Below, one piece after another: positions 4,466 to 52,820 of a stretch of DNA of 64,000 nt. The DNA comes from a virus. Both the position numbers and the translations under genes were made by a program. The notes beneath the pieces are model-generated. The model was not told the DNA's origin and made no database searches. It saw only the letters and a program-made list of their open reading frames with translations. Every line of letters starts with the position of its first letter. The first letter of the stretch is position 1. The stretch covers positions 7,960 through 71,959 of the IMG/VR virus record IMGVR_UViG_3300045996_002966; one strand, given 5' to 3'.

Positions 4466-4493
4466 GGGCTCTCATCAACGGGAGCCAAGGATC

Positions 4494-4805: not shown

Positions 4806-4816
4806 GAGGAAAAACC

Positions 4817-18533: not shown

Positions 18534-20183
18534 TTACGCGATGGTGTACGCGTGCTGCCAGCAGGTAATATTTGCATCACTCGACGGGTTCGTATAGACG
18601 CGGTGCCGCCAGCCTCCAGACACGAACCACTGCGCCTTAAAGTGCTGCGTATCCGCCATCAAGTTCACGAAGTTGTAGGGCGACTGCCGGCCATCGCGTT
18701 TATCAAAGAACCGAACCTGGGCAGATCCCGCGGGCGTAAATTCCACGAATGTCTCTGAGCTGATCGTAACGGGCGAGCTAAACGTGACGCTGTAGTAGAA
18801 GCGCTTCGGAATAGTGCCGTCGGCAAGCACGCCTGAGTTAGCCGAACCTTCTGAAAACGAGCCGGTAGCCAACGTGGTCCCACCGCTATTCTTCACGGCG
18901 ACGTTAACGGTTCCAGCCACGTCGAAGGCGCAGGAAACCCGGCAGCCGATCAACGTCCAAGAGGTCGGAGGGGTGATTACATCACGGATAGGTGCGCTCG
19001 AGGTAGCCAGCGTAGCGGTCAGGTGCTGAGCTGCGTCGAAGTTCATCAGCCCGAAGGAGGTACCGTTGGTGAAATTCAATTGGAAGTTCGGCATAATCCG
19101 ATAGGGTGACGCAACGTTCATATGGTCGAACGTCCACGCACCGGTCGAACCCTGCTGCCGCCACGCCTGCCATACAGTCCAATCCGAATCGAGCAAATAC
19201 GGAGTGCCGTCGGATGAGTTCGTCATGTGCTGACCATAGCAGTCTACGTTGCTATAGCCGAAGGTCGTATCCTCCGCCCGGCTCAAGAATTCCAAGTGGT
19301 AGAGAGTACCCGCCACTATATTCCCGTTGACAGTACCGAACGTGTGAGCGTTGAAGCGGTCATCAGGATTGGCGAATACGCCGCTGCTCATGTTCAGGGA
19401 AAAATCAGCCTGCGCGATCGGAGACCCGCTCATGTTCCGATTACCGCTGCCGTCATCGGGCCAGATATTGCAACGAGGCAATCCACCGTTGCCGCCCGAG
19501 TACCCCGCACCATCCGCCATCCAGAGCTTAATCGAGGACGGGGTACCAGACTTACCCGCGCGAAAACGGATGTAGCACCGGTAGTTGTAGCCGTCGCTGT
19601 TGCGTCCGAAGTTAACGTTAGACAACGTGTCCATCGGGAAGACGCCACCGCCCTTCATGCGGGAGAATTCCGTACTTGTCAAGCCATAGTTGCCCGGCGG
19701 GAGGATCGACAGGGTACCTTGGTTGAGGGTACCGTTAACGCCTATCGTGAACGACTCGCTAACCTGACTGCTACCGGCGTTGACGATTGCCCTAATCCAA
19801 AGTCCGCGGGCGTGCCCAGCGGCGAAATTTCCGCCTGAGATTCCTGAGGCCTCAGAGCTAGGGCTGCTGAAAGTTACGCCAGGCGGTGCGGTAGTCTCAT
19901 TGGCGATAGCGTTTTCCGTCAGGTTCACACCCACGGCGCTCCAACCAATAGCGATAGACGTTGTGCTTGAAGGCGTGTCAGCTTGAATCCACGCCTTTAA
20001 GGCATCGCGGGCATCCGAAGGCTGGACGTAAACGCACCGGTAGCACGTGTGCCCAGCAGTAAACTGCGAGCTAGTCAAGCTGAATAACTCCAAGGGTGCG
20101 AGCACACTTGATTTTTGCCCACCCAGCGACGCCGCCGCAGAGCTGTTAGATGCGCCACCAGAGAGGAATAGAGAAGTCGGCAT
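18534..20183 (-). CDS. Virion accessory / receptor-binding-like protein
   Basis: N-terminal ~150 aa paralogous to 20199..22952; G/S/T/N-rich beta composition. Confidence 0.7.
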   Translation of the reverse strand: MPTSLFLSGGASNSSAAASLGGQKSSVLAPLELFSLTSSQFTAGHTCYRCVYVQPSDARDALKAWIQADTPSSTTSIAIGWSAVGVNLTENAIANETTAPPGVTFSSPSSEASGISGGNFAAGHARGLWIRAIVNAGSSQVSESFTIGVNGTLNQGTLSILPPGNYGLTSTEFSRMKGGGVFPMDTLSNVNFGRNSDGYNYRCYIRFRAGKSGTPSSIKLWMADGAGYSGGNGGLPRCNIWPDDGSGNRNMSGSPIAQADFSLNMSSGVFANPDDRFNAHTFGTVNGNIVAGTLYHLEFLSRAEDTTFGYSNVDCYGQHMTNSSDGTPYLLDSDWTVWQAWRQQGSTGAWTFDHMNVASPYRIMPNFQLNFTNGTSFGLMNFDAAQHLTATLATSSAPIRDVITPPTSWTLIGCRVSCAFDVAGTVNVAVKNSGGTTLATGSFSEGSANSGVLADGTIPKRFYYSVTFSSPVTISSETFVEFTPAGSAQVRFFDKRDGRQSPYNFVNLMADTQHFKAQWFVSGGWRHRVYTNPSSDANITCWQHAYTIA

Positions 20184-22981: not shown

Positions 22982-23410
22982 TCAATCCTCGGTGATCGCC
23001 GTCGCGGTCGTCAGACGCGGCGTGATACCATTGCCGCAGACGATCGTCGGGCTGATAGCCCCCTTGTAGAGAATTTTGCCCGCGCCGGAAGACGCCGTAC
23101 CGACCGACCAGTGAGTAGCGGTGCCCGAGCCGCCGGTACCTGCCGGGAAGGTGATATCGGCAACTGGGCTGACTGAGTTACCGGTCACAGTCCACCCGCC
23201 TGTCGTTCGGGCCACCGCAACCCTGGCGTAGCTGGTATAGGCGATCTCACTCGTCGTCTGGCTACCCGAGTCGCCAGGGTCGGCCGTGTGAAGGGCGACC
23301 TGTAGGTTGGTAAGCGGCGAAGACGCCGCGTTATCCGCCATGTTCGCAATGGCGGTAGCGTTGAAGATCAGCTTGAGAAGATCGTTCTCAAAGGTATCAC
23401 CCTTGCTCAT
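22982..23410 (-). CDS. Conserved small fibre/decoration protein (ALHTADPG...YARVAV family)
   Basis: Characteristic motifs FENDLLKLIFN, VALHTADP and ITFP. Confidence 0.8.
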   Translation of the reverse strand: MSKGDTFENDLLKLIFNATAIANMADNAASSPLTNLQVALHTADPGDSGSQTTSEIAYTSYARVAVARTTGGWTVTGNSVSPVADITFPAGTGGSGTATHWSVGTASSGAGKILYKGAISPTIVCGNGITPRLTTATAITED

Positions 23411-23441: not shown

Positions 23442-24125
23442 TTACTTGTTCGGCAAATCTGCCGAACCCGTGACGGTTACCACTAGCTTATGTAATGAAT
23501 CGGGGGCTGGTGCCGGTGGTGGAAGATTCGCAGCCCCTCCTTGTGGGTTCTTAGGCGGATAGCTTGTTGCCCATTGGTATTCCTTGACGTCCTTCGCAAT
23601 CATGTTCTTAAGCATCGAACGCAGCACACCCTCGTCCATGGTATCTGCGCCAAGGCTCATCAGGTTAGTCGTCCAGATTTGAATCGCACGGGCCGGGTCG
23701 CGGGTCTCCTCCGGCGTGGCGCTTCCGTTCGCGCCGCCCGGCACGAAGGAGGTCTGCTTGGCAAATTCCTCGAGGAGGATTGCCGTTACCTGCTCTCGCG
23801 AGCGGACCTGTGGCGCAGGCGCGGGAGCCGGGACCGGCGTAGGGGCTGGCTGGGGCGCGGGAACGGGGGTAGGAGCCGGCTGAGGCGTCGGCGAGGGTAC
23901 TGGTACCGGCGCGGGCGTTGGAGCTGGCTGAGGGGCTGGTTGGGGCGCTGGCGGGGGCTTCGGCGTCGGGGTGGGCGCCGGGACAGGCTTCGGCTTGCGC
24001 TTTAGGAGCGCGTTCACCTTCGTCAGTAGATCCTTGGCGACCTTTCCTTGCGCAATGGCGTTTGTGTACAACTTTTCCAGGGTCGCTTTGATTTTCATCA
24101 GTTCTTCCTTGTCCTGATCGTCCAC
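23442..24125 (-). CDS. Pro-rich linker protein (coiled coil, PAP repeats, small domain)
   Basis: About 60-aa PAP(Q/T/V) low-complexity tract. Confidence 0.7.
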   Translation of the reverse strand: MDDQDKEELMKIKATLEKLYTNAIAQGKVAKDLLTKVNALLKRKPKPVPAPTPTPKPPPAPQPAPQPAPTPAPVPVPSPTPQPAPTPVPAPQPAPTPVPAPAPAPQVRSREQVTAILLEEFAKQTSFVPGGANGSATPEETRDPARAIQIWTTNLMSLGADTMDEGVLRSMLKNMIAKDVKEYQWATSYPPKNPQGGAANLPPPAPAPDSLHKLVVTVTGSADLPNK

Positions 24126-24196: not shown

Positions 24197-27019
24197 TTAT
24201 GCATTCCAGGGCGGGAATACCACCTGGCCAGCCGAAGCCCTTCCGAGATACGGTTGGAAGAACACCGGCGTCAGTTGGCGATTTGTGGGAATGCTGGTAT
24301 CACGAAACGACACCAGGGTGAAAATTGCGGTGCGCGCCGCGTCTGGTACTCGGAAGAAACCACCGAAGGGCTGAAGATCCTTAACCGAAAGGGGTTGGAA
24401 AAGCAGCGCGTTGCGGGGTAGCAACGGGCTCGACCAACGGGCCGAGATTCCATTGGGGTGAAACAGCTCAGCGCCGGTCGCGTCGAACCATACTACGTCG
24501 ACCCGCAGGTCGGAATAGAAGCTATGGCCATAGACGTAGGCGACCATGTTATCGCCGGGCGTCACCGATACCTTCGTCGACTCCTCAAAAACAACGGTCG
24601 GTGCTACTAGATCGTTTTCAAACCAGTAGACCACGCCGTTATTGTTCGGATCTCGAGCAGTCGTCGGACCGACGATCTGCCGGTAGGGCATCATCTCGAT
24701 GTTACCAGCATTGAAAGGTCCGTTCCACCCATCGTAGATGAAATCAATCGTGGTCGGGGTGACGAACTGGTTACGATAGTGAAACCGCGCGTTGACGAGG
24801 AGGTTTCCCGTCAGGTACTGGGTCGGGGTATCGTCGGCGACCTTCTTGATCATCGTCCACGGACCCTCGACCAAACGGTTGTTCGCCCGTCCTTCGATCA
24901 CCAGAATGTCGTTCCGCCTGACAGGGAAGCGAAACTCCTCCTGCGTAGGTGGCAGCTTCGGCGAGTAGTTCCACTCCGATTCGGAAATCCGCTTATAGCG
25001 AACGTCGACATGGCCTCCCGCAAGCACCATCGCGTCTTTGATCTCGTCCCACATTACCCTGCATTGCGCGGTGAGCTCTCCGTTCGGGCCGAAGGCAGCC
25101 GCGGCCAGGTTAGTCTGTGCGCGTAGATTGACCAGCTTAGGAACATCGCGCACATTGGGTAAACTGGTATTGGGTGTTATATCAACGTTCGTTTCATTGA
25201 AGTCCCACTCATAGATGAATGGATGATCCTCCTGTGCCTCCATCTCTACGGTGCCGTTCGCCATTAGCTGCCACCGCTTGACGCGGAAAATCTTGTTGGG
25301 GTTGGCCATCCCCAGACTGCGGACCTGGTAGTAGAAGGTGAGCTCAGGCGCGAGCGGGATGGCTCGCGTGTTGAGAATACCAATCAGGCGCAACCCATTG
25401 CGCGCCCGCCAGAGCATCTGCTTTGAAATCCGATGCGCCATGTACGAGTCGCGCGTACCCAGCAAGTCAGCCTCCCGCCAGATGTAGCGTGGAGGCTCCT
25501 GTCCCGCGTTGTCCTGCAACGCGTAGAAACGCGACGGATAGGGGTGGGCATCGTCCATCGGCCACCAAGGCTTCTGGTCGTTCGGGTGCCGCACTCGAAT
25601 CGAGTTGTATAGCTCCGGCCGAGACATCCCCTTGATGACCTCGGGGTAACTCACGAAGTCGGAGTCCTGGAGGAGAATCTCAGGCTGCGGGAAGTGCCCG
25701 ACCCAAATGTCAAGGTAAGGCCCCGAAGGAACCACAGCACCATCGCACGTCGTCAGTATCGCGCCGAGGTTGTCAAGCGGCGTGTTTTCCGTTGACAGGG
25801 CAAGATCGATCCTATAGCGCTCCTGGTGAGGGTTCGCGTCCGAGTAACCGTGCAGCTGGTTGGGTACTCCAGGCGTTAGAGGGATCGGCTCGTCGCAGAT
25901 GTTGATCTGGCTAATGAAGTGGCCCGTATCGTCGATCTCACCTGGATCTGCTTGAAACTCGTTGATCAGATAATCACGTGTGGCGAGAGCAGGGTTAGTC
26001 GAGAAGGTAGTGACGACGTCGCGCGGCGTGAATACCTCCTTACCAAGGATTCGGAAGGAGATGGGCTCGAGCCCCTCGGGGAACACGCTAGGATCAGGGT
26101 GAATGCGGAAGACGACGTAAGGAATACCTCGCAGCCGATCGCTGGCGGTCCACTGCTGCTCAAAGAGACCCGCATTTGCGGTCCCAGCGATGAAGTTCGG
26201 ATCTGCTAGCTGATTCTCATCGCCGAGGTAAGCCCAGGCTTTGATGTAGCTCTTGGTGTACTGATACTTGTAGGTAATCGAGTAAGCTTCGCCCGGTACC
26301 CCGCCGATCAATTCAATCAGAGTCGGGTTGAAAGCGGTACCAATTCCTGGAACACGGCGCACCGTTACGTCGCGCGGCGTATAGCGTCGATCCTGCCAAG
26401 TATCATCGCCGGTCGTCATGACCGGCATAGTGACATTCTCCTGCTGGGCGACGCTAGCGACGATCTGCTCGCCCTCGAGCGGCCCGAGCACGTAGATGGG
26501 CTCTCCTGTGTGTCCAGGCTTAGGCTTCAGATCGATCAGCCCATTGCTAGGAATAACTCCGGTTTGCGAATGCGTCTCACTGAAAGCCCGATTGAACCAA
26601 CCGCTTGCCACATCGCCGTTAGGTGAAAAGGGCCAGAGGTTAGTGTGCTCGCCATACATCACCTGAGAGAAACCGGTAATCTTGTGAGCGACCGGCAACG
26701 CCAGCACCATCCAGAAGTAAGGATCCTCCTTGGATTTAGGCGAGCGCCCGCCCACCAGGACGCCGCTCACGTACGCTTGCCCGTACACGTAACTCTTGGC
26801 GATGTTCCCACCGCGCAGGGTCAGCTTCCGATCGGCGAACTTCCCATTAAGCGCCGAGGCCTCGGCTTTCTTCCGCTCCTCGCGCGCTGCCCAGGCCCCA
26901 TAGACGGTTGAGGTGCCCGCCAACGCGTAACCCGCGACCGCACCCCAGGCTCCACCGGACGCGAACATGGCAGCGCCCCAAAGGACCACCTGGAAGGCCT
27001 GGCGTGCTTTACCGCCCAT
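24197..27019 (-). CDS. Central tail tip / host-specificity protein (gpJ-like)
   Basis: YVYGQ...SG, LRGIPY, STNPAL..RDYL and YNSIR motifs; FN3-like and CBM-like C-terminus. Confidence 0.88.
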   Translation of the reverse strand: MGGKARQAFQVVLWGAAMFASGGAWGAVAGYALAGTSTVYGAWAAREERKKAEASALNGKFADRKLTLRGGNIAKSYVYGQAYVSGVLVGGRSPKSKEDPYFWMVLALPVAHKITGFSQVMYGEHTNLWPFSPNGDVASGWFNRAFSETHSQTGVIPSNGLIDLKPKPGHTGEPIYVLGPLEGEQIVASVAQQENVTMPVMTTGDDTWQDRRYTPRDVTVRRVPGIGTAFNPTLIELIGGVPGEAYSITYKYQYTKSYIKAWAYLGDENQLADPNFIAGTANAGLFEQQWTASDRLRGIPYVVFRIHPDPSVFPEGLEPISFRILGKEVFTPRDVVTTFSTNPALATRDYLINEFQADPGEIDDTGHFISQINICDEPIPLTPGVPNQLHGYSDANPHQERYRIDLALSTENTPLDNLGAILTTCDGAVVPSGPYLDIWVGHFPQPEILLQDSDFVSYPEVIKGMSRPELYNSIRVRHPNDQKPWWPMDDAHPYPSRFYALQDNAGQEPPRYIWREADLLGTRDSYMAHRISKQMLWRARNGLRLIGILNTRAIPLAPELTFYYQVRSLGMANPNKIFRVKRWQLMANGTVEMEAQEDHPFIYEWDFNETNVDITPNTSLPNVRDVPKLVNLRAQTNLAAAAFGPNGELTAQCRVMWDEIKDAMVLAGGHVDVRYKRISESEWNYSPKLPPTQEEFRFPVRRNDILVIEGRANNRLVEGPWTMIKKVADDTPTQYLTGNLLVNARFHYRNQFVTPTTIDFIYDGWNGPFNAGNIEMMPYRQIVGPTTARDPNNNGVVYWFENDLVAPTVVFEESTKVSVTPGDNMVAYVYGHSFYSDLRVDVVWFDATGAELFHPNGISARWSSPLLPRNALLFQPLSVKDLQPFGGFFRVPDAARTAIFTLVSFRDTSIPTNRQLTPVFFQPYLGRASAGQVVFPPWNA

Positions 27020-27020
27020 C

Positions 27021-27440
27021 TCAGTTCACCGCCCAGACGATGATTGCTTCGCGCATGGGTGTCACCAGCAGCTCGGTTTCGCCAGGAGCGTGCGCGCCGC
27101 GCCCGGTGCAAAGGCCCAAGGACGGTAACCCCTCGGCATCGTAGATCAGCACCGGATCGCCGCGCGAGAAGGTGGCTGCGTTCGGCCGCCGCGGGAAGCG
27201 CTTATCCATCGCTACGATCAACCCGCCCTCAGCCTCGAGCAGCTGCATCGCCTCCTCCTTCGTATGCCAGGGGTCGGCGCGGTATTCCGGAATCGGATCG
27301 ACGCCGGTAGTCGCAAGCACACCGTTCATCGTGAAGAGCACGCAGTCCAACACACCCCACTCGTAGGGCTTGAATTGATTCTCCATCACGTAGAGGTTCA
27401 ATCGCTCTACCCAGCTCGAGACCTTACGCCACTCGTTCAT
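27021..27440 (-). CDS. NlpC/P60-like tail assembly protein
   Basis: YEWGVLDCVLF and RGD motifs; position directly before gpJ. Confidence 0.85.
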   Translation of the reverse strand: MNEWRKVSSWVERLNLYVMENQFKPYEWGVLDCVLFTMNGVLATTGVDPIPEYRADPWHTKEEAMQLLEAEGGLIVAMDKRFPRRPNAATFSRGDPVLIYDAEGLPSLGLCTGRGAHAPGETELLVTPMREAIIVWAVN

Positions 27441-27446
27441 GTGATT

Positions 27447-28151
27447 TTACTTCTGCTGTAGAAAGGCTGGCATGAACACCAGCTCGGCATTGGCGAAGTA
27501 AGCAGCCCGGCGCAATCCGGTGTCGCCAGGATATTTGCGGTCCTGCTCCTCGTGTGAAAGTCGTTGCGGGTTCGGGAACAGGCCGCGAGAGAGCGTGCTC
27601 TCGAGACTGGCCCTGATCACCCCATAGCCCGTCGCGTCGTAGTTCTCCCGCGTCTGTTGGGTAATGACAATCAGCGTCGCCTGGTTAGAGGTGTAGACCA
27701 CGCTGTTAATCGTTACCGTGGCGGAAATCGTAGTCGAGCCAACGCCGACCGCAAGAACTTCCATCACCGCGACGCCTTGGCTATCGGTAAGGATACTCGA
27801 GGGCAGTGGGGCGACCTGCTGGTCGGTACTGGTAAGGACGATGGTGAATTGTCCGGTTGCGCGCAAGTCGTTTAAACGTACTTCCACATGTAGGGTAGAT
27901 GCCTGCCCTGGTTCGCGCTGCAGCGGCCCGAGCGTAAGGACTACTTCATAGTCAGGAATCGGCGGGCCTGGTGGTTCGCCGATGCTCTGCGTAACACCAT
28001 CAAGGTTATAGCCGCCGCTCGGTGAAAGCGATCGGAAAAGGTTGATGACTGGGGCGGACGTGGGCGCAGGTGCGGGCGCAGGCACAGGTCCAGGCGGCGG
28101 TGTGCTCGCCGGGATTCCGACAACCTCAAAACTAAAGGTATGAATAGCCAT
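27447..28151 (-). CDS. Ig-like domain fused to the C-terminal third of the tail-hub protein
   Basis: Ig-like domain, then IRASLES...PQRLSHEEQDRKYPGDTGL. Confidence 0.7.
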   Translation of the reverse strand: MAIHTFSFEVVGIPASTPPPGPVPAPAPAPTSAPVINLFRSLSPSGGYNLDGVTQSIGEPPGPPIPDYEVVLTLGPLQREPGQASTLHVEVRLNDLRATGQFTIVLTSTDQQVAPLPSSILTDSQGVAVMEVLAVGVGSTTISATVTINSVVYTSNQATLIVITQQTRENYDATGYGVIRASLESTLSRGLFPNPQRLSHEEQDRKYPGDTGLRRAAYFANAELVFMPAFLQQK

Positions 28152-30041
28152 CTAGATGACCGTCACCTGGAAGATACCCGGACCCGCGACCGAGATACCG
28201 TTGTAGTTCGGATTGCGCAACGCCGCCTCGACCGGCTGGCCAAGGGAGAGCGAAACCCCCGACGGCGGGGTAACGACCATGCGCGAAAGATTACCCGCCG
28301 CAGGTGTTTGCTCGAAGCGCTGGCCTTCAACTTCGAACAACTTCGTGGTAGGGAACTTTTCCGAAATGTGCTTGGCGTAGACAGCGATCTCAAATCCAGC
28401 GACACCGTACCACCCCTGCTCCGCTAGAATCTCAATCTTACGCGCGGTAACGGTGCCGCCCACCGTAAGCACCGATACGTTTGAGGTAACGAGGTCTGTT
28501 TGCGTCACCAAATCTTTATAAGTAGACGCTGTGATATTTGTCGTGCCATTCGCCAAAGCTCTCAGCTGGAGAGTGGCCGTCCCTATATCATTGACGCCAG
28601 TGGGAGGTGCCTGGTTAAACTCTGCCTTGGTAGCATCGGAAATAAACCAATTCAATCCTTCGTGGTTATCCCACGGAGCGTTGGCGATATCCAGGAATTG
28701 CACAAAAGCGTTGGCCAGTCCGCCGACTGGAATTGAAACGGGCGAGATGCTCATCAAAATACTCTGCAGGCTCCTCGAGACCATCGTACCCTCGGTGATC
28801 TTCGGGAAGGTGGGAACCGTACCTGACTCGAGTTGGAAGCCGGTAACGTCAAGGCTGCGGCCTAGAGCCACTTGCTGAACACCGCCGGTTACCAGTGGAT
28901 AGAATTCAATGATGCGATTTCCAGCCGGCAGCGTAACGGCAATCCAAACCAACCACCAACCGTTAGCGAGGGCCTTGAACCCTACCGCGCCGTCGCTGGC
29001 GGTACCAAAGTTGTTATTGACTACGAAAGCGCCCGTCACCAAGTTAAAGTGCGCCTGATGGCCTGCAGAGAACGCGTCGTTCATATGGCGCAGGCAGACG
29101 AAGTCGGTATCGACCTTTTTGAATACGCCGTAGGCGAGCTGCTTACCCGCCGGGACGCTAATGACATTTTGGTAAATTCCGCCGTTGGCATTAGCCATCC
29201 GCACGCGCTGCGGGCCACCCCACTGGGTAGCAATGTCGACGGCAGCGCCGCTGATTAACTCGTTGCTTTGCTTGTTCCAAACGCCATTGACCAACCCCGT
29301 GCCAGCGGAGTGAAGAATCCGATTAACCCGAACGCCGGTGCTACCCGTCGCAGCGATCTCGGAAGGCATCTCAGCATCGCCTGAGATAACCATGCCGTTG
29401 AAAGTATTGAAGACCGGCATGTCGGCCGAGTAGGCAAGCGCACCCGAGGCTACGAAGTCCGGGCCGAACTCGCCGATGACCGCAGCCGCAACCGAGCCTC
29501 CGTCGCCCGAGTGAGCCGAAAGGAGGCTATTGGATCGGACGACCGTTTCGCTAGCCCACTCGGCGAGAATCTCCGTGTCGGTCAGCGAGGCAGCGTAACG
29601 GCGAATGTGCGCGAACAGACCGATGAAGAGTCCCGTGTTCCCACCGCTGTCACCCCACCATTCCAGCTCGGAGGTATAGGTGGTTTGGGCAACGGTAATG
29701 GTAACGACCGTAGTTCCGCTTTTCCACTTCAGCGAAATATTCGAGCCTGCTCCCACAACCGCCATCGGAAACCAAGTGTTAAGCGGAACAGCGGTCGTAC
29801 CCTTCGCTTGGGTCGTAGCCCAGTTAGCTTGCACAACCGGGAGGTGAGGAGTTGAATTCGCCGGATCGTTGATGATAACGTCGTGAGCGTTCCCCACCGC
29901 CCTGCTCAGGTTGAAAAGAAACTTCAGCCCCGTCAGGTCAGCCAATCTTTTCACGTAGAAAATATGGGAGAAAGCCCCGGTCGTCAACCCCTGGGGCATT
30001 CTCATTCTGGAGCTGGCAGCTCCTGTCATGTGAAAAGACAT
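28152..30041 (-). CDS. Multidomain virion protein (LamG/ConA-like, CBM-like, Ig-like)
   Basis: HIRRYAASLTDTEI LamG-type end; NGWWLV...GFQLESG..PT domain; Ig-like stretch. Confidence 0.7.
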   Translation of the reverse strand: MSFHMTGAASSRMRMPQGLTTGAFSHIFYVKRLADLTGLKFLFNLSRAVGNAHDVIINDPANSTPHLPVVQANWATTQAKGTTAVPLNTWFPMAVVGAGSNISLKWKSGTTVVTITVAQTTYTSELEWWGDSGGNTGLFIGLFAHIRRYAASLTDTEILAEWASETVVRSNSLLSAHSGDGGSVAAAVIGEFGPDFVASGALAYSADMPVFNTFNGMVISGDAEMPSEIAATGSTGVRVNRILHSAGTGLVNGVWNKQSNELISGAAVDIATQWGGPQRVRMANANGGIYQNVISVPAGKQLAYGVFKKVDTDFVCLRHMNDAFSAGHQAHFNLVTGAFVVNNNFGTASDGAVGFKALANGWWLVWIAVTLPAGNRIIEFYPLVTGGVQQVALGRSLDVTGFQLESGTVPTFPKITEGTMVSRSLQSILMSISPVSIPVGGLANAFVQFLDIANAPWDNHEGLNWFISDATKAEFNQAPPTGVNDIGTATLQLRALANGTTNITASTYKDLVTQTDLVTSNVSVLTVGGTVTARKIEILAEQGWYGVAGFEIAVYAKHISEKFPTTKLFEVEGQRFEQTPAAGNLSRMVVTPPSGVSLSLGQPVEAALRNPNYNGISVAGPGIFQVTVI

Positions 30042-30050
30042 GATTAGGTC

Positions 30051-31427
30051 TCAGCTGAAGATATCGGGGTAAGAGGCGTTGAGGTTATTCCACGTGCAGG
30101 TATGCATCACGTGGAATTGATAGTTAGGCCACTTCGCCCGAACATACCGGTGGCGTGAAGTTCCGATACCGTACAGGTAAGCTCCACCCGTACTCGAGCC
30201 GACGGAGGACGGCGCGTAGTAGTCGCCGCCGTTCGCCACGAGGAAGCGCGAGGCGTCACGGTCGTCGGTCGCCGATGGGTTGTGCAAAATCAGCGAGGTT
30301 CGGCAGGAGAAAAGAATCTCCTGCAGGTTGTTCGGATCCCAGCCGCGCAGGCCTCCGAAGGGGTGCGGAACCCAGTAGCTGCCGGTGCTGTCCACGCCGA
30401 GCACAGGCGCCGGGCGATAAGAGCTGTAGCCGTTGTAGGCAGACTCTACCCGGTGGTCGAACATGCTCGGGTTGTTGCTTCCGGTAAAGCTAGGCCTCCA
30501 GGCTTCACCGCCGCTGGGGTTGATGTGAAACATACGAGACCAAACGCCGCCCTTCTTCAACCAGCACTGAGTATCCCAGAATAGCACTCGGCTGTTGCCT
30601 ACGTAGCCAGGGGCGTGCTTGGATGCGGTAGTCTGGTAATCATCCGAGAGGAAAACGTCTGCCCACCACATAATTCGATCCCAGAGCGGAATCGCGCGCG
30701 CGTCGGTCAGCTGCTGGCCCGTAACCCAGGTGAGGTCGGTTTGGTAATCCGGGTTGCGATCGTCGAAAGCTGCCGGGTTCGGGTACCTGCCCATGGACAG
30801 CTGAGCGCGGGTGTATTGGCTCGAGGGGCTGCGCTCCTCGCGGCGAAAGGTTCGCGCCTCGTTCAGAGCGTAGCTGTTGGAGTAGCTGAAGGAGCCGGTC
30901 GCCGGATCCTTGCGCATATCTGTCAGCGCGATTCGAAGCCAATCGTCGCCGCTCTCGCCGCCGCCACCTCCGCCTCCAATTGGCACGTCCAGACCCGCAG
31001 GAGGTTTAAGGAGCACGTTGAGAAGCCTCACGAAGTCGGTACCGTTGAGATTCTTACTCGCGGTAAGGAACAGAGCCGGGTCACCGCCAAACTTCAACGG
31101 TACGCTAATCTCAGTTGAAGAATTAGTGGCATGGCGTAAAACCATCGTCGTCGTGTCACCGCTCAGCGTCGCCACGCTGTTAAGACTCGGCGGTTCGGTA
31201 AGCGCGCCAGACATCGAGATGCCGGCGGCAGCAACTGGAATTGCGGTAGGGACTACTGTGCGGTAAACGATCGACGTGCCCACCCGAATCTCAAAGATCG
31301 GATTGGCGCCTAGAGCCGACAATACACCTTGAACGTAGTGCGCTTTTTGCTGCCCGATGGAGACCGCGAGCGCATTCGCGTAGATGACACCAGCGTTAAT
31401 ACCTTTGAAAGTAACTTTCGCAGCCAT
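30051..31427 (-). CDS. Virion accessory protein, paralog of 31434..32777
   Basis: Shared GQQKA.Y...LG.NPIFEI.VGT and H(N/D)PS.TDDR motifs. Confidence 0.75.
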   Translation of the reverse strand: MAAKVTFKGINAGVIYANALAVSIGQQKAHYVQGVLSALGANPIFEIRVGTSIVYRTVVPTAIPVAAAGISMSGALTEPPSLNSVATLSGDTTTMVLRHATNSSTEISVPLKFGGDPALFLTASKNLNGTDFVRLLNVLLKPPAGLDVPIGGGGGGGESGDDWLRIALTDMRKDPATGSFSYSNSYALNEARTFRREERSPSSQYTRAQLSMGRYPNPAAFDDRNPDYQTDLTWVTGQQLTDARAIPLWDRIMWWADVFLSDDYQTTASKHAPGYVGNSRVLFWDTQCWLKKGGVWSRMFHINPSGGEAWRPSFTGSNNPSMFDHRVESAYNGYSSYRPAPVLGVDSTGSYWVPHPFGGLRGWDPNNLQEILFSCRTSLILHNPSATDDRDASRFLVANGGDYYAPSSVGSSTGGAYLYGIGTSRHRYVRAKWPNYQFHVMHTCTWNNLNASYPDIFS

Positions 31428-31433
31428 GATTTT

Positions 31434-32777
31434 TTAGGACCACCCAGGTGGAGGATTGGTGTTAAGGGTAGTGATTGGAATGCTACTCCAGGAAAACGTG
31501 CGCCAGGCGCCATTACTCGGAATTAACTTCACGCGGCCGACTCCGGCCCCATCAACTACATATACGTCATTCGCATACCAGTTAGACGCCGACCAGATCA
31601 TCAGATTAGCGTTCGCCCGGTCATCTGTCCCCGACGGATCGTGCACAATTAACCGAGCCTCGAGAACCTCGAGCACCGCGCGTACGTTATCTACCCACCA
31701 CTGGCGCGTATTAACATATTCTATCGGATGCGAGTGAAGCATGAAATCTTCGTAGCGAATCCGATTTGAATTACTGGTCGAATCAAAGGCTAAGCCCCAG
31801 TTACCCGAGCCAATCGAGCCTAAGCTCTGACCTCCGCCGTTACCTACCGGTTCAATACGAGCTTGGTAGACTGCTACCCCCTGCTCAGTTGGGATAGAAA
31901 GACCGCCACCAACAAACGTCGACTGCCAAACAGCGGTGAGAATGCCGTCGTCCCGGCTGGCTAGCGTTTGATATAGTCCATTGCGTAAATAGGCAATGAG
32001 CTTATGCCCGCGAATTTGCACACGAGAGTTAATGCTACGTGTCAACGAACCAGATCCTCGACCAACCACGATTGAGCCCATGAGTTTAATGGCCGTGGTA
32101 TTGGTAAGGGTAACCGTTCCCGTCGGTACGCGCAACGTTGCATCGCTGAGATACGCATTGGGATAACCTGAGTCACCGTCAGTTCGGTTAATCGCTACCG
32201 TGATTTGAGCATAGGTGTTGGTCGTACCGGTATGAGTATTAGGCGCCTGCGCAATCCCCCACCCATTCTCATTGGGCAGGGTCATATCGTTGATCAATTC
32301 TTGCTTCGAATATGTCGTCGTACCAGCTGAGCCACCGCTAACATCAAGAGTCGGCGGTGGAGTCAGGCGGAAGGAGGACGTGCGCACAAGTCTCGTTCCG
32401 TCGAGTGCCAGGCTAGCAGTTACGAATCCGGTACCACCACCAAGCTTTATCGGCACGCTCGCATAGACCGAGCTGTTGCTCGCGTTGCGAATTATTACCA
32501 CGCAATTGCTACCGGTAAGCGCATCAGCAAGGTTCACCGACGGCGGCTCTACGAATTGAACTGGAATCACCACCCCTGCAGAGCTATTCGCCAGGGTGCC
32601 CATAACGGTCGACCGATACTTCACCGTGGTACCTACCGCGATCTCAAAGATCGGGTTGGTACCAAGCAGCGCCGCTACGTCGGTGCAATACTTAGCCTTC
32701 TGCTGGCCAACCGGCAGAGCACCGGCGGCAGATATCAGCCCAGGGACGTTGAACCCGACGAGGGTAGCAGTCGTCAC
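31434..32777 (-). CDS. Virion accessory protein, paralog of 30051..31427
   Basis: Same shared motifs; ATGA overlap with the hub N-terminal gene. Confidence 0.75.
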   Translation of the reverse strand: MTTATLVGFNVPGLISAAGALPVGQQKAKYCTDVAALLGTNPIFEIAVGTTVKYRSTVMGTLANSSAGVVIPVQFVEPPSVNLADALTGSNCVVIIRNASNSSVYASVPIKLGGGTGFVTASLALDGTRLVRTSSFRLTPPPTLDVSGGSAGTTTYSKQELINDMTLPNENGWGIAQAPNTHTGTTNTYAQITVAINRTDGDSGYPNAYLSDATLRVPTGTVTLTNTTAIKLMGSIVVGRGSGSLTRSINSRVQIRGHKLIAYLRNGLYQTLASRDDGILTAVWQSTFVGGGLSIPTEQGVAVYQARIEPVGNGGGQSLGSIGSGNWGLAFDSTSNSNRIRYEDFMLHSHPIEYVNTRQWWVDNVRAVLEVLEARLIVHDPSGTDDRANANLMIWSASNWYANDVYVVDGAGVGRVKLIPSNGAWRTFSWSSIPITTLNTNPPPGWS

Positions 32778-33193
32778 GAAGCAGCCTCCTCGGCGAAGGG
32801 CTGCGAGATTCTTATCTCACTGATCGTTCCGCGGTGCACCACGAAAGGTGCATCTACCGGCTGATTCGTATCTGGATCGCGCAGAAGGGCCCAGGTATGA
32901 ACCACGGCGCCCTCGAGGTCGGTATTCAGGGCCAGGCTAATCAGGGCCGGGTCGAGACCACTCAGCACCAGCTCGCCGTTCTTGGCCTCGAGGCTCGCGC
33001 TCTCCTCGGGGAACTCCATGTCGAGAAGGTCTCCCGCGCCCAACCAATCGACGCCCGCCCAGTGCTGCGTATGGACGCCTGAGCAGAGGTAGATATTGCC
33101 CACCGGCAGCGGAAGGGTGATCCTCACCAGCCAGGTAAGGTTCACCCGGTCAGCGTTAATCGCGTTGCGGTTGGCGGTCGTCAAGAGTCTCAT
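32774..33193 (-). CDS. Tail-hub (gpL/DUF2163-like) protein, N-terminal part only
   Basis: W.GVDWLGAGDL, LVLSGLD and HRG.I motifs; follows the distal tail gene; lacks the YPGD C-terminus. Confidence 0.75.
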   Translation of the reverse strand: MRLLTTANRNAINADRVNLTWLVRITLPLPVGNIYLCSGVHTQHWAGVDWLGAGDLLDMEFPEESASLEAKNGELVLSGLDPALISLALNTDLEGAVVHTWALLRDPDTNQPVDAPFVVHRGTISEIRISQPFAEEAAS

Positions 33194-33801
33194 CGCATCG
33201 GAACCTCAATCAGCCCGACCGTGAAACCTTCGCCCATGTTCCCGCGCGTGTGGAAGGTCGGCCGCTCGACGATCATGCAGTCGAGGTAAGGTTTGCTCCA
33301 GGTGACGATCGCGCCGCCGTTCGCTGCCCGACGTAGAGGCGGGGTAATCTCCGCGGTGATCACCGAGCCTACGGTGAACGCGTTATGAATTAAGACCAAC
33401 TGCTGATAGTTGTTATTCAGCGTTACCCCCACGAAATCACCAGTCAGCAGCGTTGACCCGGTAGTCGTCTGAACCCCGATGGCGTTGGCGCCTTCGCCGT
33501 GCAACGCAGTCAAGGTAGGCGAACCGCGCAACGTGCCCGTAGGCACTGAGTGATCGGCAACCCAGACTCGAACTCGGTGTGCCTTTGTTCGAAGGGTCAA
33601 CCAGAAAGCTCGCACCGAGCGATATTCGCTTAGAGGCATGCCGCGGTACTCAAACCCTACCACCCAGCAGTCACCAGGAAACTCCACGGTTTGAGTCGCG
33701 AAGTTCAACTTTGAGCGGTTTACCATTACGTTTTCGAGAAGGTCGATCTCGAAATTAGTAAAGTACCGCGAATGCCAACTAGGAAGTGCATACACCGTCA
33801 T
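33190..33801 (-). CDS. Distal tail protein
   Basis: Directly after the tape measure gene; SKLNF..QTV..PG..W and ITPPLR motifs. Confidence 0.75.
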   Translation of the reverse strand: MTVYALPSWHSRYFTNFEIDLLENVMVNRSKLNFATQTVEFPGDCWVVGFEYRGMPLSEYRSVRAFWLTLRTKAHRVRVWVADHSVPTGTLRGSPTLTALHGEGANAIGVQTTTGSTLLTGDFVGVTLNNNYQQLVLIHNAFTVGSVITAEITPPLRRAANGGAIVTWSKPYLDCMIVERPTFHTRGNMGEGFTVGLIEVPMR

Positions 33802-33805
33802 AGCT

Positions 33806-36598
33806 TTACCTCGTCGTACGCCGTTGCTTGTTCGACATGGTGCGCTCGACGACCGTAGTCAGAATGCGCTTCATCTCCATCGGGCTCGGCTGATTCGAAT
33901 TACCGGGCGGCATATTGATATGAAACTCGTTATGCACAGGCCCTCCACCGCCGCCACCTTCGACCCCAAGCTTGCCATTGCGGCCCCGCTTTAGGGGCAT
34001 GACGGCCTCCGGGCCAGCCTCAGCCATGAGACCCATGCCGGACGCGAAGCGGAACATGGTGGGCCTCGTATAGACCCCGGAGGACAGGCCGTTGATGCCG
34101 CCCATGAAGGTGCCGCCGCTCGCAAACACCTGATCAGCGATCGCTTGGTTACCCGCAGCGGTGAACGCGGAGCTGCCCCTCGAGCCGGCGCCACCCATCA
34201 GCTGGAGCAGCATGCTGACGGTTTGTTTCGTGAAGAAGCGAGCCATATCGGCCTGCATGCTCTTGAGCAAGTTCGAAAAGGAGAGCTTGCCACTCGTCGC
34301 CGCATCGGCCATCGCATCCTCGAGGCCGCCGAAGGCATTCGTAAACATGCCCTCGGTCTGAGTCGCGAGGTCGTTGGCCTCGTCGATGTAATTCGCGATA
34401 GCCTCACGAGCGCCAGTCGCAGCATCGCGCTGCTTCTCCTGAAGACGACTCCAATAGACGTCGTACTCGTTCAAAGCCTTGTCGCGAAACTCCTTGATAA
34501 TCTCGATCTGCTTGTCAAGCTGATCCTTCTGCTCTTGGGTTTGCGCTGCGGCGCGCTCCCGCGTCGTATCCAACAGCTGCTGCTGGTACTTCTCGTTGAT
34601 CTGAGTCAGACCCCGCAACCGATCGCGGGCAAGGTTTCCCTGGCCCATGCTGGCGATCTCGAGGTCGTGTTGGCGCTCAAGGCTGGTCAGGTAGTCCTCA
34701 GCCGCATCGCGCATCGCCTGAATATCTTTGATACGATTGCGGGCTGCGTTGGCTTGCGTAGTCTCGAGATTCTGCTCGGTGATATTCGTCTTACGACGAA
34801 TGCGCTCGATCTCACTTTCGCTATCGGCAATCTGCCGGTTGAGCTGGATGACCTCAGCGTTATAACGGCGCTGGGCCTCGAGCTTCTCCTGCTCCGTGCC
34901 ACCCGAGGCGTCGCGGCGCTCAGCAGCGATCTGCTTCTCCTCCTCGAGCCGTGCGATTTCCTGCTCGAGGGCTGCTTGACGTATACGAGCATCCTGATGA
35001 AGCAACTCCTTCCGACGCGCATAGTAATCCTCCTCGTCCACGAGACCGGCAGAGCGCAGAGCCTCGAGCCGATCGTTAGCGTTTTCATTGTCGGCAACAA
35101 TGTCACCCAGGGCTCGCTGAATAGCAGCGATATCCGAACCTAGATCCTTGGCCCCGATCCTGATCTCGAGCTGGGCGAGCCGCTTGGCGGCTGCTTCGGC
35201 TTCGCGCTGAGCCTTCTTAGCACCCGAGTCCAGCGAGGATGGACGGGCCGCCGCCTGCATCTTCTTGATCTCGGCTTCCGACTTACCAGCCGCCAGGCCG
35301 GTCTCACGGATCTTCTTCGCGGTCTCCGCGTACTTCTCGGCAACGGTTTGGTGCTTCTTGGACAGCTCCTCCCAGGCGCGCCCGGCAGCCTTCGCAGCCT
35401 GGATATCCGCGAGGTTGTTGGCAATGCGTCGATCGTCGCCCGATAGCTCTGGGGTGCCGGCACCAGCTGGGTCGCGCTGGTTGGCGAACCGCTTCATGTC
35501 CTCCGTGGTCGCCTGGAGCTGGTTGGACAGGCTCTTGGCACGGCCCTCGAGCATCGCCATGTGAGTCAGCTGCGCCTGCGATGGGGCGGTGCCCGACTCC
35601 TTCCGGTAGTTCTCCAGCTCCTGAATAGTCTTGTTGATCTGATAAGAGAGCCGTGCGCTCTTGGTCTCCAGCTCGGATAGCTGATCCAGGCCTAGGAGCC
35701 TGCTCAGCAGCCCAGGGTCGACGATGATATTCGAGAAGGTCTCGACGCCTTCAGCGAGCTTTCTAGTAAGGCCATAGGCCTGATCGATCTTCCCGATCGA
35801 GACCTGGACCGCGTTCTGCAGCGCGGTGAGGGACTGTTCGAAGGTCTGCGGCATGCGAGCCGCTTCAGCGTTCAACGCACCGAGCTGCGCGATCAGCGCT
35901 GGAATCATCGAACCGGTGGTGAGCTCTCCCGCAGCGGCCATCGCCCGCAGCTCAGAGGTAGTCCGCCCCATGCCCTTGGCGATGGCCTCCATCAGCCGAG
36001 GCATCTGCTCGTTGACCGAGTTGAACTCGTCGCCGCGCAGCGTACCACTCGCGAAGGCTTGGCCTAGCTGCCGCAGTGCACCAGACGCTTCCTGCGCGTT
36101 GGTACCTGAGATGAGCATCGACTTGCCGACGGCATCCGTGACCTTCAGCAGGTCTTGCTCGGTTACCCCTGCGTCCTTCGTCGCCCGAGCTAGCGAGGTG
36201 TAGAGGTTGGTAGTCTCACCGAGGCTTTGCTTGTTCTTCTGCGCCTGCGCAAAGAGGTTGTTCTGGACGCGCTCGAGCTGCCCGGTGCTGTTAGTCACCA
36301 GGGCCAGCCGGGCGTTCATCAACGCATAGTTATCGGCAACCGCGATAACCTGGCGGGCAACGGTGACAAGGGCAAGGCCCTGCATCGCCCGACCGAAGGT
36401 CGTGATGGCACTCGCGACGCGGGCGGTGCTGGTCGACACCTGCTGCATGTCGCCAGCGAGGCGGCGCGACCTCCCACCGAGGGAGCCCATCTGGGCTTCC
36501 GTGCGAACACCGGCACTCGTAAGAGCACGGAGCCGCTCCGCCGCGGTCTGGGCAGCGGTGCTGTCGACCTGTATGCCGAGCCGGGCGATGTCACTCAT
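33806..36598 (-). CDS. Tape measure protein
   Basis: QLGQAFASGTLRGDEFNSVNEQ domain; long helix; lambda-type C-terminus MAEAGPEAVMPLKRG. Confidence 0.95.
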   Translation of the reverse strand: MSDIARLGIQVDSTAAQTAAERLRALTSAGVRTEAQMGSLGGRSRRLAGDMQQVSTSTARVASAITTFGRAMQGLALVTVARQVIAVADNYALMNARLALVTNSTGQLERVQNNLFAQAQKNKQSLGETTNLYTSLARATKDAGVTEQDLLKVTDAVGKSMLISGTNAQEASGALRQLGQAFASGTLRGDEFNSVNEQMPRLMEAIAKGMGRTTSELRAMAAAGELTTGSMIPALIAQLGALNAEAARMPQTFEQSLTALQNAVQVSIGKIDQAYGLTRKLAEGVETFSNIIVDPGLLSRLLGLDQLSELETKSARLSYQINKTIQELENYRKESGTAPSQAQLTHMAMLEGRAKSLSNQLQATTEDMKRFANQRDPAGAGTPELSGDDRRIANNLADIQAAKAAGRAWEELSKKHQTVAEKYAETAKKIRETGLAAGKSEAEIKKMQAAARPSSLDSGAKKAQREAEAAAKRLAQLEIRIGAKDLGSDIAAIQRALGDIVADNENANDRLEALRSAGLVDEEDYYARRKELLHQDARIRQAALEQEIARLEEEKQIAAERRDASGGTEQEKLEAQRRYNAEVIQLNRQIADSESEIERIRRKTNITEQNLETTQANAARNRIKDIQAMRDAAEDYLTSLERQHDLEIASMGQGNLARDRLRGLTQINEKYQQQLLDTTRERAAAQTQEQKDQLDKQIEIIKEFRDKALNEYDVYWSRLQEKQRDAATGAREAIANYIDEANDLATQTEGMFTNAFGGLEDAMADAATSGKLSFSNLLKSMQADMARFFTKQTVSMLLQLMGGAGSRGSSAFTAAGNQAIADQVFASGGTFMGGINGLSSGVYTRPTMFRFASGMGLMAEAGPEAVMPLKRGRNGKLGVEGGGGGGPVHNEFHINMPPGNSNQPSPMEMKRILTTVVERTMSNKQRRTTR

Positions 36599-37259: not shown

Positions 37260-37910
37260 TTAAGGTGCCGCGTACCTCATCGGGTCAGACAGCAGCGAGA
37301 GCGTGACTTCCACAGCCATGATCTCGTTCACCGTGAGGGTCGGCGTTTTGTTGAGGGAGATGTACGCGTTGTAGAAGATCGTCGCGCCCGAGGGCAGCGT
37401 GATCCGCACCGCGCGGGGCAGTCGGTCGTCGTTCGCCGCGCTCGCCAGCTGGTAGCCAGGCAGAGCCGGGTCGTCCGCAACCGTAAAGGAAAGGCCCGAG
37501 GCAGACTTGGTGGTTGGGATCCGCTGCTGCGTATCGCTTTCGAGCAGCTGATACTCCAGGAACTGCTGCTCACCACCCGAAGAGGCCGAGCCCAGGATTT
37601 GAGCCAGCTGAGTCCACGTGAGAACTTCCATGACGAAACCAGAGCCACCGCCCGCCGGGTAAAGGCTGGTGCTGGTGCTATTCACACCGGTCAGCGGGAT
37701 AACATCGCCCGCCGGCGTACCGGCGACGACAACGCGGTCAGTCAGTTTCGACCAACCGGAGGTCACCACCATTACATCGTTGGCGACAATTCCATGACCG
37801 GTTGCGAGAGTAGCTTGGGCCGGGTTGGCATTCGAAACCGCCGACATGACCTTGGAGGTTCCATAGCTCGCGGCGATCGCGACCAGGGCACCATTGGGAA
37901 GTGAAATCAT
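37260..37910 (-). CDS. Major tail tube protein
   Basis: LPNGA...SNANPA, SGW and GGEQQF..QLLE...IPT motifs. Confidence 0.9.
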   Translation of the reverse strand: MISLPNGALVAIAASYGTSKVMSAVSNANPAQATLATGHGIVANDVMVVTSGWSKLTDRVVVAGTPAGDVIPLTGVNSTSTSLYPAGGGSGFVMEVLTWTQLAQILGSASSGGEQQFLEYQLLESDTQQRIPTTKSASGLSFTVADDPALPGYQLASAANDDRLPRAVRITLPSGATIFYNAYISLNKTPTLTVNEIMAVEVTLSLLSDPMRYAAP

Positions 37911-47280: not shown

Positions 47281-47483
47281 TGGAACCTCTCAATTCTTAC
47301 CTGACCGTAGACCCGCTCTTCCAAGGGCGCGGTCTGCGACTCATTGAGCTGTATGCGACCTTCGGCGTTGGTAACCAGCTGGACCACGTAGCCTTCCTCG
47401 TCATCTGCCTCGATGGCAAACTGCGCTTCGTGGCCGTCGAGGAAGACGTGGGCCCGGTCACCATTCGCTACCGATACTTTCAT
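47277..47483 (-). CDS. Small hypothetical protein
   Basis: VFLDG...EADDEEGYV motif; coupled to terL. Confidence 0.7.
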   Translation of the reverse strand: MKVSVANGDRAHVFLDGHEAQFAIEADDEEGYVVQLVTNAEGRIQLNESQTAPLEERVYGQVRIERFQ

Positions 47484-52794: not shown

Positions 52795-52820
52795 CCTAAC
52801 CAAAGCCCAAGGAGATTTAC

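Follow-up and report, generated by a model that had tools for sequence, protein, structure and literature searches.

The tail-tip locus described here lies in a window of 64,000 nucleotides, the whole stretch of DNA that was analysed, which is part of a virus record of 71,959 bp from an uncultured soil phage, rated CheckV 100%. All ORFs of the locus are on the minus strand and agree with the initial annotation; the genes and the domains within them are as follows.

33806..36598, minus strand: tape measure protein, 930 aa (Pfam TMP_3, E 7.9e-61, and Tape_meas_lam_C, E 5.1e-19; phrog_339, E 6.8e-123)
33190..33801, minus strand: distal tail protein, 203 aa (phrog_1302 'distal tail protein', E 4.7e-21)
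32774..33193, minus strand: predicted hub N piece, P0001, 139 aa; HDI-type hub domain without the last strand and C-terminal part
31434..32777, minus strand: nested gene 1, 447 aa; paralogue of nested gene 2
30051..31427, minus strand: nested gene 2, 458 aa; paralogue of nested gene 1
28152..30041, minus strand: nested gene 3, 629 aa; GTA head-spike-fibre domain at residues 238-424
27447..28151, minus strand: Ig-hubC protein, P0002, 234 aa; a Pro-rich arm at the N-terminus, then an Ig-like domain, then the hub C piece
27657..27959, minus strand: Ig-like beta-sandwich domain of P0002, residues ~65-165 (structure model and Foldseek)
27459..27626, minus strand: predicted hub C piece, P0002 residues 176-231; last hub strand and C-terminal part (HMM and hhalign)
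27021..27440, minus strand: DUF6950 protein, 139 aa (Pfam PF22262, E 4.8e-23)
24197..27019, minus strand: gpJ-like central tail protein, 940 aa (phrog_5616 'tail fiber protein', E 5.6e-34; phrog_31 'central tail fiber J', E 4.9e-12)

The hub locus has the distal tail protein on one side and the gpJ-like protein on the other, in agreement with the annotated gene order of Roseobacter phage CRP-406. All pieces of the split locus are intact and tightly coupled ORFs; the stop codon of the N piece overlaps the GTG start of nested gene 1 (GTGA), and the ATG of P0002 comes immediately after the TAG of the 629-aa gene. The gene that follows P0002 had been labelled NlpC/P60, a label that was not supported as worded: at E<=10 DUF6950 was its sole Pfam match and NlpC/P60 models gave none, there was no NCBIfam match, and no PDB sequence matched below E 0.18. 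DUF6950 also follows the contiguous hub in CRP-406, L004, L005/L012, L010 and L011. The region sets an annotation trap, in that the 139-aa P0001 gene resembles a hub that has been truncated, and family searches leave the 234-aa gene without a match.

Two genes here encode the predicted hub protein of about 187 aa, an HDI beta-sandwich with a short C-terminal part. An HMM of the hub family (187 positions, from 78 full-length representatives of 178-200 aa) was run against 1220 six-frame ORFs of the window, and it matched the N piece at positions 2-129 (E 4.1e-36) and, at positions 134-184, residues 177-227 of the 234-aa ORF (E 1.2e-6); no third match was present, the best remaining ORF having an E of 4.3. 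A scan of the whole 71,959-bp record with the same HMM also returned the N and C pieces alone, and the record has no full hub gene elsewhere, which the initial annotation had named as a refuting outcome. When the last 64 residues of the 234-aa protein were shuffled 2000 times, no shuffle reached the real score of 26.3 bits (shuffled maximum 4.5). By hhalign, the N-piece family corresponded to hub family columns 2-131 (E 1e-40) and residues 176-231 of the 234-aa protein to columns 134-189 (probability 96.6%, E 5.6e-10), and the independent profile phrog_2048 placed the N piece at 175-302 of its 390 positions, with the C piece following at 306-355 in a match that is weak alone (E 0.011). The HMM and hhalign results agree with the initial annotation that the halves are adjacent, non-overlapping parts of one family; they are encoded by two ORFs 5.1 kb apart, and the whole domain with its C-terminal part is not on one polypeptide. 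Two details had to be adjusted. The N gene does contain the N-terminal part and then stops, but it extends 8 residues beyond ...RISQ, and the C part, given as 27447-27629, is indeed the C-terminal end of a different gene, although the homologous stretch is 27459-27626. The family search returned 272 representatives at E<=1e-3, and at least 77 of them are of 180-199 aa (77 of the 150 listed).

The modelled fold of the hub family is the lambda gpL/T5 pb3 HDI fold. The AlphaFold2 model is that of the full-length member P0036 (pLDDT 89.2), to which the N piece is joined by the hhalign alignment, and with VIA-align its residues 2-152 superposed on T5 pb3 1-168 with a Z of 14.7 (rmsd 2.6, 148 aligned), while the model gave a Z of 13.6 with lambda gpL 1-163 and of 13.2 with the RcGTA hub 6tba_7A. 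From this model and the hhalign columns, the break falls in the hairpin loop between strands 127-129 and 134-142, which flank the gap, and the hairpin-loop site proposed earlier was therefore upheld. As the break is at model residues 130/133 and the HDI match spans 2-152, it would therefore lie within the HDI domain. The relation of the family to PF09931 (Phage_phiJL001_Gp84_N; baseplate hub, N-terminal attachment domain) appears to be distant only; 1 of 13 scanned family representatives passed (P0054, 31.2 bits against a cut-off of 26), two fell below, and P0001 gave no match at E<=10.

P0002 has eight homologues of 197-227 aa. Within this family the C piece, which carries the motif R-L-S..EEQ...YPGD.GL, is 48-86% identical, the Ig domain 26-71% and the arm 12-59%, and residues 171-231 hold 16 of the 30 invariant columns. 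An Ig-like domain ahead of the C piece had been recognized from the sequence, and this was corroborated by a confident AlphaFold2 beta-sandwich (residues 71-160 all-beta, block-mean pLDDT 89-95) and by Foldseek matches of the Ig region to intimin D0-D1, SbsC and CARDB (E about 1e-4, ~100 residues aligned); Pfam Big_1 stayed below its cut-off (E 0.15). Modelled alone, the C piece and the arm had a pLDDT of <50 while the Ig domain was confident, and the low values for the lone C piece and arm would fit segments that fold on a partner.

The initial annotation described the genes between the pieces as a 'receptor-binding-like' cassette. For one of the three this has a basis in a curated match, as nested gene 3 matches NCBIfam NF048003.1 GTA_spike_fiber at residues 238-424 (E 2.5e-18, 67.3 bits against a cut-off of 36) and has a weak lead, with an Atlas score of 0.84, to phage proteins of the ConA-like/Laminin_G_3 type; in RcGTA the head spike fibre binds capsular polysaccharide (PMC10218006). 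For the other two genes the basis is their paralogy, and as worded the description is unsupported. A recognisable domain is absent from both: nested gene 1 had no Pfam, PHROG or PDB sequence match and nested gene 2 no family match, and the two are 43% identical over the first 143 residues (E 2e-28), a shared N-terminal module.

The whole split locus was seen in one relative contig, L006, a metagenome relative that is ~40-46% identical and has the order distal tail protein, 136-aa N piece, two nested genes, 197-aa Ig-hubC protein and DUF6950, the genes of its split locus overlapping by 1-4 nt. A 40% identical counterpart of the distal tail protein lies there immediately ahead of the N piece; nested genes 1 and 3 have counterparts that are 39% and 38% identical respectively, and nested gene 2 has none of its own, matching only the single 447-like gene at 27%. 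L007, L008 and L009 have a short N piece and then a 447-like gene, up to the contig end. Fourteen short-form hub representatives group together (SH-aLRT 94), and a clade of 17 short-form clusters is compatible with the tree test (p-AU 0.94). By sequence comparison the split is old: it persists at roughly 40% identity, with two or three nested genes, so that the single recent entry of a cassette suggested earlier is unsupported. Relatives with a contiguous hub gene were found, as was one with different nested content (L006), both of which the initial annotation had led us to look for.

We propose that the locus is an old, conserved gene-in-pieces of a lambda-gpL-type hub, completed from two chains and with fibre-like genes nested in it, and we consider this the probable explanation. 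During tail-tip assembly the C piece would supply the strand that the N-piece sandwich lacks, and its helical part would take the outer-surface place beside the gpJ-like protein, as the gpL C-terminal domain does in lambda. The hub would thereby be completed from two chains, with the Ig domain and arm displayed outside the tip. Assembly of the hub from two polypeptides was also what the initial annotation had put forward, and it is what we infer here.

Tail-tip hubs divided among chains are already known, at or near domain borders, and it is the cut within a domain that differs. The hub domains of lambda (gpL, gpI and gpJ) and RcGTA (g13 and g15) are spread over several polypeptides, as opposed to the single-chain pb3 of T5 (PMC10721106); one chain gives way to the next between domains or within the HDII-insertion, and the lambda gpL C-terminal domain, on the outer surface, complements gpJ. 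The window locus resembles these hubs in the fold of its N part (Z 13.2-14.7) and in gene position between the distal tail and gpJ-like proteins, and would share with them a single hub made from several chains and a C-terminal part placed on the outer surface comparably to that of gpL (PMC10721106). Unlike in lambda and RcGTA, the HDI sandwich is itself interrupted, with one strand still to come; the C piece follows an Ig-like domain in the same polypeptide, and two or three genes intervene. The C piece also differs in its lack of Fe-S cysteines: four are reported in the [4Fe-4S] C-terminal domain of lambda and RcGTA (PMC10721106), and none was found in P0002 residues 166-234, nor does the consensus of the contiguous family have them. 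Contiguous members of the family (phrog_2048) are direct sequence homologues; among them are CRP-406 (PV211008.1), where the gene is annotated 'minor tail protein L', and Escherichia phages Seurat and CAjan, where it is a tail protein. CRP-406 shares the order tape measure protein, distal tail protein, hub, DUF6950 and large tail protein; in contrast to the window, its hub is one gene of about 188 aa that DUF6950 adjoins without an intervening gene. What appears unusual here, from sequence, is that one small domain is divided just before its final strand and is kept so across deep divergence.

Another explanation, which we regard as unlikely but the most serious competitor, is that the N piece is a self-sufficient truncated hub and that the C piece is a docking tag for the gpJ-like protein or the hub surface, without restoration of the hub fold; the 234-aa protein would then be an Ig decoration or adaptor that keeps an old interface. 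Short hubs do finish in their own conserved terminal motif, ...RI.PPS. A severely C-truncated gpL-like protein is reported to be conserved in the Guernseyvirinae, and truncated gpL homologues that seemingly work alone are reported for Salmonella phage Jersey (PMC13243795); the N piece might therefore manage without the strand. Jersey gp30 is, like the N piece, a short gpL-type protein conserved in its lineage, but its C part is reported there as largely missing (PMC13243795), whereas the window keeps this part on another polypeptide. Against self-sufficiency, the break at 130/133 precedes the last sandwich strand and is not at the domain border, and the strand part ...LES.L is retained in all nine members of the P0002 family, with E184 and L187 invariant.

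One contiguous hub might instead be made by DNA removal or re-joining of products, through an intron, a whole or split intein, an element that excises, or bypass during translation. Phage genes-in-pieces, or fractured genes, are split by homing endonuclease genes or split inteins and their pieces are presumed to reassemble. The window locus is like them in having one protein on two ORFs parted by inserted genes, and this analogy, with its mobile elements, is all that was found to favour re-joining. Unlike in those systems, there is no endonuclease or intein, the inserted genes look structural and are conserved, and the split product is predicted to be a virion component rather than an enzyme. 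The absence of an intron, intein or transposase signature, noted earlier, held in Pfam, PHROG and Rfam scans: Rfam gave no match at E<=1 in 26500-34000, so no group I or group II intron, and the nested genes had no endonuclease, intein, recombinase or transposase match in Pfam or PHROG, nor did any of the five ORFs match a homing endonuclease or a split-intein half there. The borders of the insert are not flanked by direct repeats. An intein half would need more than the 7 residues that the N piece has after the break, the stretch of 175 residues ahead of the C piece is a conserved Ig-containing protein, and the nested genes are conserved as proteins in L006. Logan contigs from two soil runs span all five junctions with no differences and no alternative joints, which also speaks against re-joining, and overall we hold it to be very improbable. 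That the record was misassembled, or shows a hub gene decaying in a defective element, merits a thought as it is a metagenome-derived virus contig, but this is the least credible reading of all: the identical contigs that bridge each junction come from two studies (one run may be the source sample), the same architecture recurs in the distant L006, the ORFs are intact and tightly coupled, and no part of the 234-aa protein is better conserved than the C piece.

Returning to the hub completed from two chains, a two-gene hub with nested genes probably plugs extra host-binding proteins into the tip, because related phages keep the layout. More speculatively, the arm may anchor the nested fibre-like proteins, much as the initial annotation had them mounted on the Ig and linker arm, and the gap may be a slot where host-binding genes are gained, duplicated and lost; the nested-gene count is two in L006 and three in the window. 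It is a tentative and rather doubtful extension that the last strand and C-terminal part form a portable plug that wires fused proteins into the tip, with the gap between socket and plug as a protected swap slot. If general, this would be a way, as yet without a name, in which uncultured long-tailed phages evolve their host range. Should two chains complete one fold, they would offer a simple rule for attaching extra host-binding proteins to a siphophage tip and a natural strand-complementation tag for loading cargo on phage tails. At the window locus it is the detached hub piece that carries the Ig domain, and the fibre-like genes nest between the pieces. Large loop inserts (HMM 105-108) were also seen in 9 of 148 classed hub family representatives, one of them a Laminin_G_3 lectin-like domain (E 7e-18), and the hub therefore serves as a display platform; unlike the window hub, these are single polypeptides, with the insert in a different, neighbouring loop.

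The tail hub of this siphophage, whose 71,959-bp IMG/VR virus record is complete by CheckV and contains the window as its bases 7960-71959, is encoded as two adjacent pieces of one hub family that lie on two polypeptides, a 139-aa protein (the N piece) and the C-terminal end of a 234-aa protein, Ig-hubC. Three nested genes lie between the two in the following setting.

Tail genes of the window and their surroundings
47483-48754: large terminase, head/packaging
40572-41837: P22-type coat protein, head/packaging
37260-37910: tail tube
33806-36598, minus strand: tape measure, 930 aa
33190-33801, minus strand: distal tail protein, 203 aa
32774-33193, minus strand: hub N piece, 139 aa
31434-32777, minus strand: nested gene 1, 447 aa
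30051-31427, minus strand: nested gene 2, 458 aa
28152-30041, minus strand: nested gene 3, 629 aa
27447-28151, minus strand: Ig-hubC protein, 234 aa
27021-27440, minus strand: DUF6950 protein, 139 aa
24197-27019, minus strand: gpJ-like protein, 940 aa
50470-52680: primase/helicase-like protein (DUF3854 + DUF5906), replication, on the other side

A portal (DUF4055) and a Mu F-like protein also belong to the head and packaging genes, a DUF1799 chaperone to the tail genes and a family A DNA polymerase to the replication genes on the other side, where a tRNA-Pro (TGG) at 52720-52796 directly follows the primase/helicase-like gene. The tail-tip genes form one translationally coupled operon; the N gene ends in a stop codon that shares bases with the GTG start of the 447-aa gene, and the TAG of the 629-aa gene is followed immediately by the ATG of the 234-aa gene. 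Neither promoter-like sites (4 vs 5.1) nor terminator-like sites (9 vs 11.6) exceeded their numbers in shuffled sequence.

Searched with HMMER against 1.84 billion representatives, the 139-aa protein had 272 matches at E<=1e-3. Among the 150 matches listed, 77 were 180-199 aa long, with only their ~128 N-terminal residues covered by the query, and the closest relatives, again among the matches listed, were likewise short (131-150 aa). A hub profile of 187 positions, built from 78 representatives of 178-200 aa and run on the window's full set of 1220 six-frame ORFs, was matched at positions 2-129 by the 139-aa ORF (E 4.1e-36) and at positions 134-184 by residues 177-227 of the 234-aa ORF (E 1.2e-6), and the third-best ORF reached only E 4.3. 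The two pieces are thus adjacent on one profile and do not overlap, which bears out the split tail-hub gene proposed in the initial annotation, and the end motif given there for the hub is the consensus of the family. In profile-profile comparison the N-piece family took up columns 2-131 (E 1e-40), and the 234-aa family took up columns 134-189 with its residues 176-231 (probability 96.6%, E 5.6e-10). The C piece scored 26.3 bits, and 2000 shuffles of the 64 C-terminal residues gave at most 4.5. The curated profile phrog_2048 is an independent reference: full-length members align to it at 175-363, while of the two pieces N covers 175-302 and C, in a weak match (E 0.011), 306-355. The C piece was not found on other carriers of 411-2000 aa or of 30-127 aa, which is weak evidence. 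Some details needed correction: eight more residues follow the point (...RISQ) at which the N gene had been thought to end, and the C part, originally placed at 27447-27629, is confirmed as a homologous stretch but runs from 27459 to 27626. A profile from 74 of the 78 representatives (four were omitted by eye as their C-termini seemed aberrant) matched the same two places in the whole 71,959-bp record and no others, and a complete hub gene is therefore absent elsewhere.

Compared with its eight homologues (197-227 aa), the 234-aa protein is most conserved in the C piece, at 48-86% identity; the Ig domain reaches 26-71% and the arm 12-59%, and 16 of 30 invariant columns fall within residues 171-231. 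Two of these homologues, P0005 and P0008, lie on longer contigs of 23.5 kb and 27 kb. Residues ~65-165 are confidently predicted as an Ig-like sandwich, in agreement with the Ig-like domain earlier noticed in front of the C piece. Residues 1-61 and the C piece were of low confidence when predicted alone, as expected of segments that need a partner. The next gene, previously read as NlpC/P60, encodes a DUF6950 protein that matches no NlpC/P60 model at E<=10, and an NlpC/P60-like enzyme is only a candidate identity for it.

No PDB sequence matched either hub-piece protein, any of the nested three or the DUF6950 protein at an E value below 0.18. The fold was compared on an AlphaFold2 model (pLDDT 89.2) of a contiguous family member, P0036 (190 aa). 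With VIA-align this model matched residues 1-168 of T5 pb3 (Z 14.7; 148 residues at rmsd 2.6), residues 1-163 of lambda gpL (Z 13.6) and the RcGTA hub protein (Z 13.2), as well as hub proteins of JBD30, R4C, Chi, T1 and Sf11; Foldseek agreed. The model thus identifies the hub family as the HDI hub domain. The alignments pair N-piece residue 132 with position 130 of the model, and residue 176 in the 234-aa protein with position 133. The break thus lies at the turn that joins strands 127-129 and 134-142, in the hairpin loop where it had been predicted. As the HDI matches cover model residues 2-152, the cut is inside the domain and not at its border, and on the model it falls one strand before the domain's end.

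We propose that the C piece adds a strand to the N piece and so completes the hub sandwich, a two-polypeptide strand completion that would be the key mechanistic step. The helical part of the C piece would take the outer-surface position beside the gpJ-like protein, with the Ig domain and arm projecting outward; more speculatively, the arm may hold the nested proteins. The main rival explanation is that the N piece works alone and the C piece is a docking tag only, for which the truncated gpL homologue of phage Jersey (PMC13243795) offers a parallel. The split arrangement resembles two known kinds of system, namely hubs spread over several chains, and genes in pieces; as an example of the former, the single-chain T5 pb3 corresponds to gpL and gpI combined with the N-terminal part of gpJ (PMC10721106). 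A literature search of titles and abstract openings found no published account of a split gpL-type gene.

Re-joining of the two pieces is very unlikely: as noticed at the outset for introns, inteins and transposases, no device is evident, with no Rfam family matched at E<=1, no Pfam or PHROG match to an endonuclease, intein, recombinase or transposase, and no flanking repeats at the borders. Misassembly fares no better, as Logan contigs from two soil-metagenome runs of two studies agree exactly with the window and bridge all five gene junctions, with no alternative joint seen in either run, although one of the runs may stem from the source sample itself. Stronger, independent evidence comes from L006, a 5091-bp metagenome contig whose proteins are only 38-46% identical to those of the window, yet which has the same split. 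Its order is distal tail protein, 136-aa N piece, 455-aa (447-like) protein, 624-aa (629-like) protein, 197-aa Ig-hubC and DUF6950, with overlaps of 1-4 nt throughout, and the C-terminal end of its Ig-hubC matches profile positions 123-185 (E 1e-8). The split arrangement is therefore conserved and the nested content variable, with two nested genes in L006 vs three in the window. The window's Ig-hubC has an N-terminal, Pro-rich stretch of ~35 residues that is missing from the L006 protein (4234-4827), which makes the arm the most variable part. Three further contigs (L007-L009) carry a short N piece and then the start of a 447-like gene. No match was found by tblastn of the N piece, Ig-hubC, P0164 and P0162 against 50,697 phage records, nor any relative by IMG/VR pattern scans with the N piece, the aligned Ig-hubC family (A1), P0164 and P0162.

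Relatives with a contiguous gene, which the initial annotation had proposed as a check, do exist. With the family member P0029, tblastn detected a contiguous hub gene in 125 cultured-phage records. Roseobacter phage CRP-406 is annotated with the tape measure first, then a protein of 206 aa, the 188-aa 'minor tail protein L', 'DUF6950 family protein' and a tail protein of 956 aa, and the metagenome contigs L004, L005/L012, L010 and L011 have the same order with a contiguous hub. An IMG/VR pattern scan with alignment A3 gave three loci, each with a contiguous hub; a GTDB genome scan with it found none. We classed 148 of 151 proteins (the N piece and P0012-P0161; in the other three the match starts late or fails) as 110 full, 20 short (ending at profile positions 122-133), nine with a big insert at positions 105-108 and nine other. 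The short-form clusters include P0012-P0024, P0030, P0048 and P0063. In a quick tree of the hub N part (139 rows, 129 columns), which is poorly resolved, 14 short forms including the window's made one group (SH-aLRT 94), three more lay nearby and three were scattered and fragment-like. Constraining the 14 and the three nearby, 17 in all, to one clade was not rejected (p-AU 0.94), and a single old origin of the split is thus compatible with these sequences, although not proven.

A plausible history is loop insertion, then fission and later gene gain. Some single-chain relatives have large inserts in the neighbouring loop. These are P0050, P0058, P0060, P0076, P0099, P0120, P0138, P0156 and P0161; they reach up to 520 aa in total, and P0058 has a Laminin_G_3 lectin-like domain (E 7e-18) as its insert. 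Inserts in nine of the 148 classed representatives argue for the hub as a recurrent display platform. No single-chain form with an insert at the split loop itself was seen.

Of the nested proteins, the 629-aa one matches NCBIfam GTA_spike_fiber at residues 238-424 (E 2.5e-18, above the curated cut-off); capsular polysaccharide is what the head spike fibre of RcGTA binds (PMC10218006). Atlas gave a sub-threshold ConA-like lead only (0.84) for this protein and nothing for the 458-aa protein. Pfam, PHROG, NCBIfam and PDB searches revealed no recognisable family for the 447- and 458-aa proteins. Their genes are paralogues (43% identity over the first 143 residues), and the common N-terminal module with a divergent remainder suggests the usual pattern of fibre paralogues. 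The GC3 of the 447-aa gene is 0.56 vs 0.76-0.80 in the hub N piece and DUF6950 genes; the other fibre-like genes are similar (0.64-0.70), so this does not count as a sign of foreign origin.

Further minus-strand genes lie downstream of the gpJ-like gene. The 227-aa protein (23442-24125) has an acidic, Pro-rich repetitive stretch, and its weak, below-cut-off Pfam match to Trypan_PARP reflects low complexity, not homology. The 142-aa protein (22982-23410) matches Pfam Gp80 (podophage GP4 fibre I protein, E 8.5e-16). Its 61% identical counterpart in L015 (5230-5844), a metagenome contig, directly follows a contiguous hub gene; behind that hub no DUF6950 gene was detected. The 917-aa (20199-22952) and 549-aa (18534-20183) genes are probably a further fibre paralogue pair; their products have an N-terminal module in common (166 residues, 43% identity) and both match phrog_13135.
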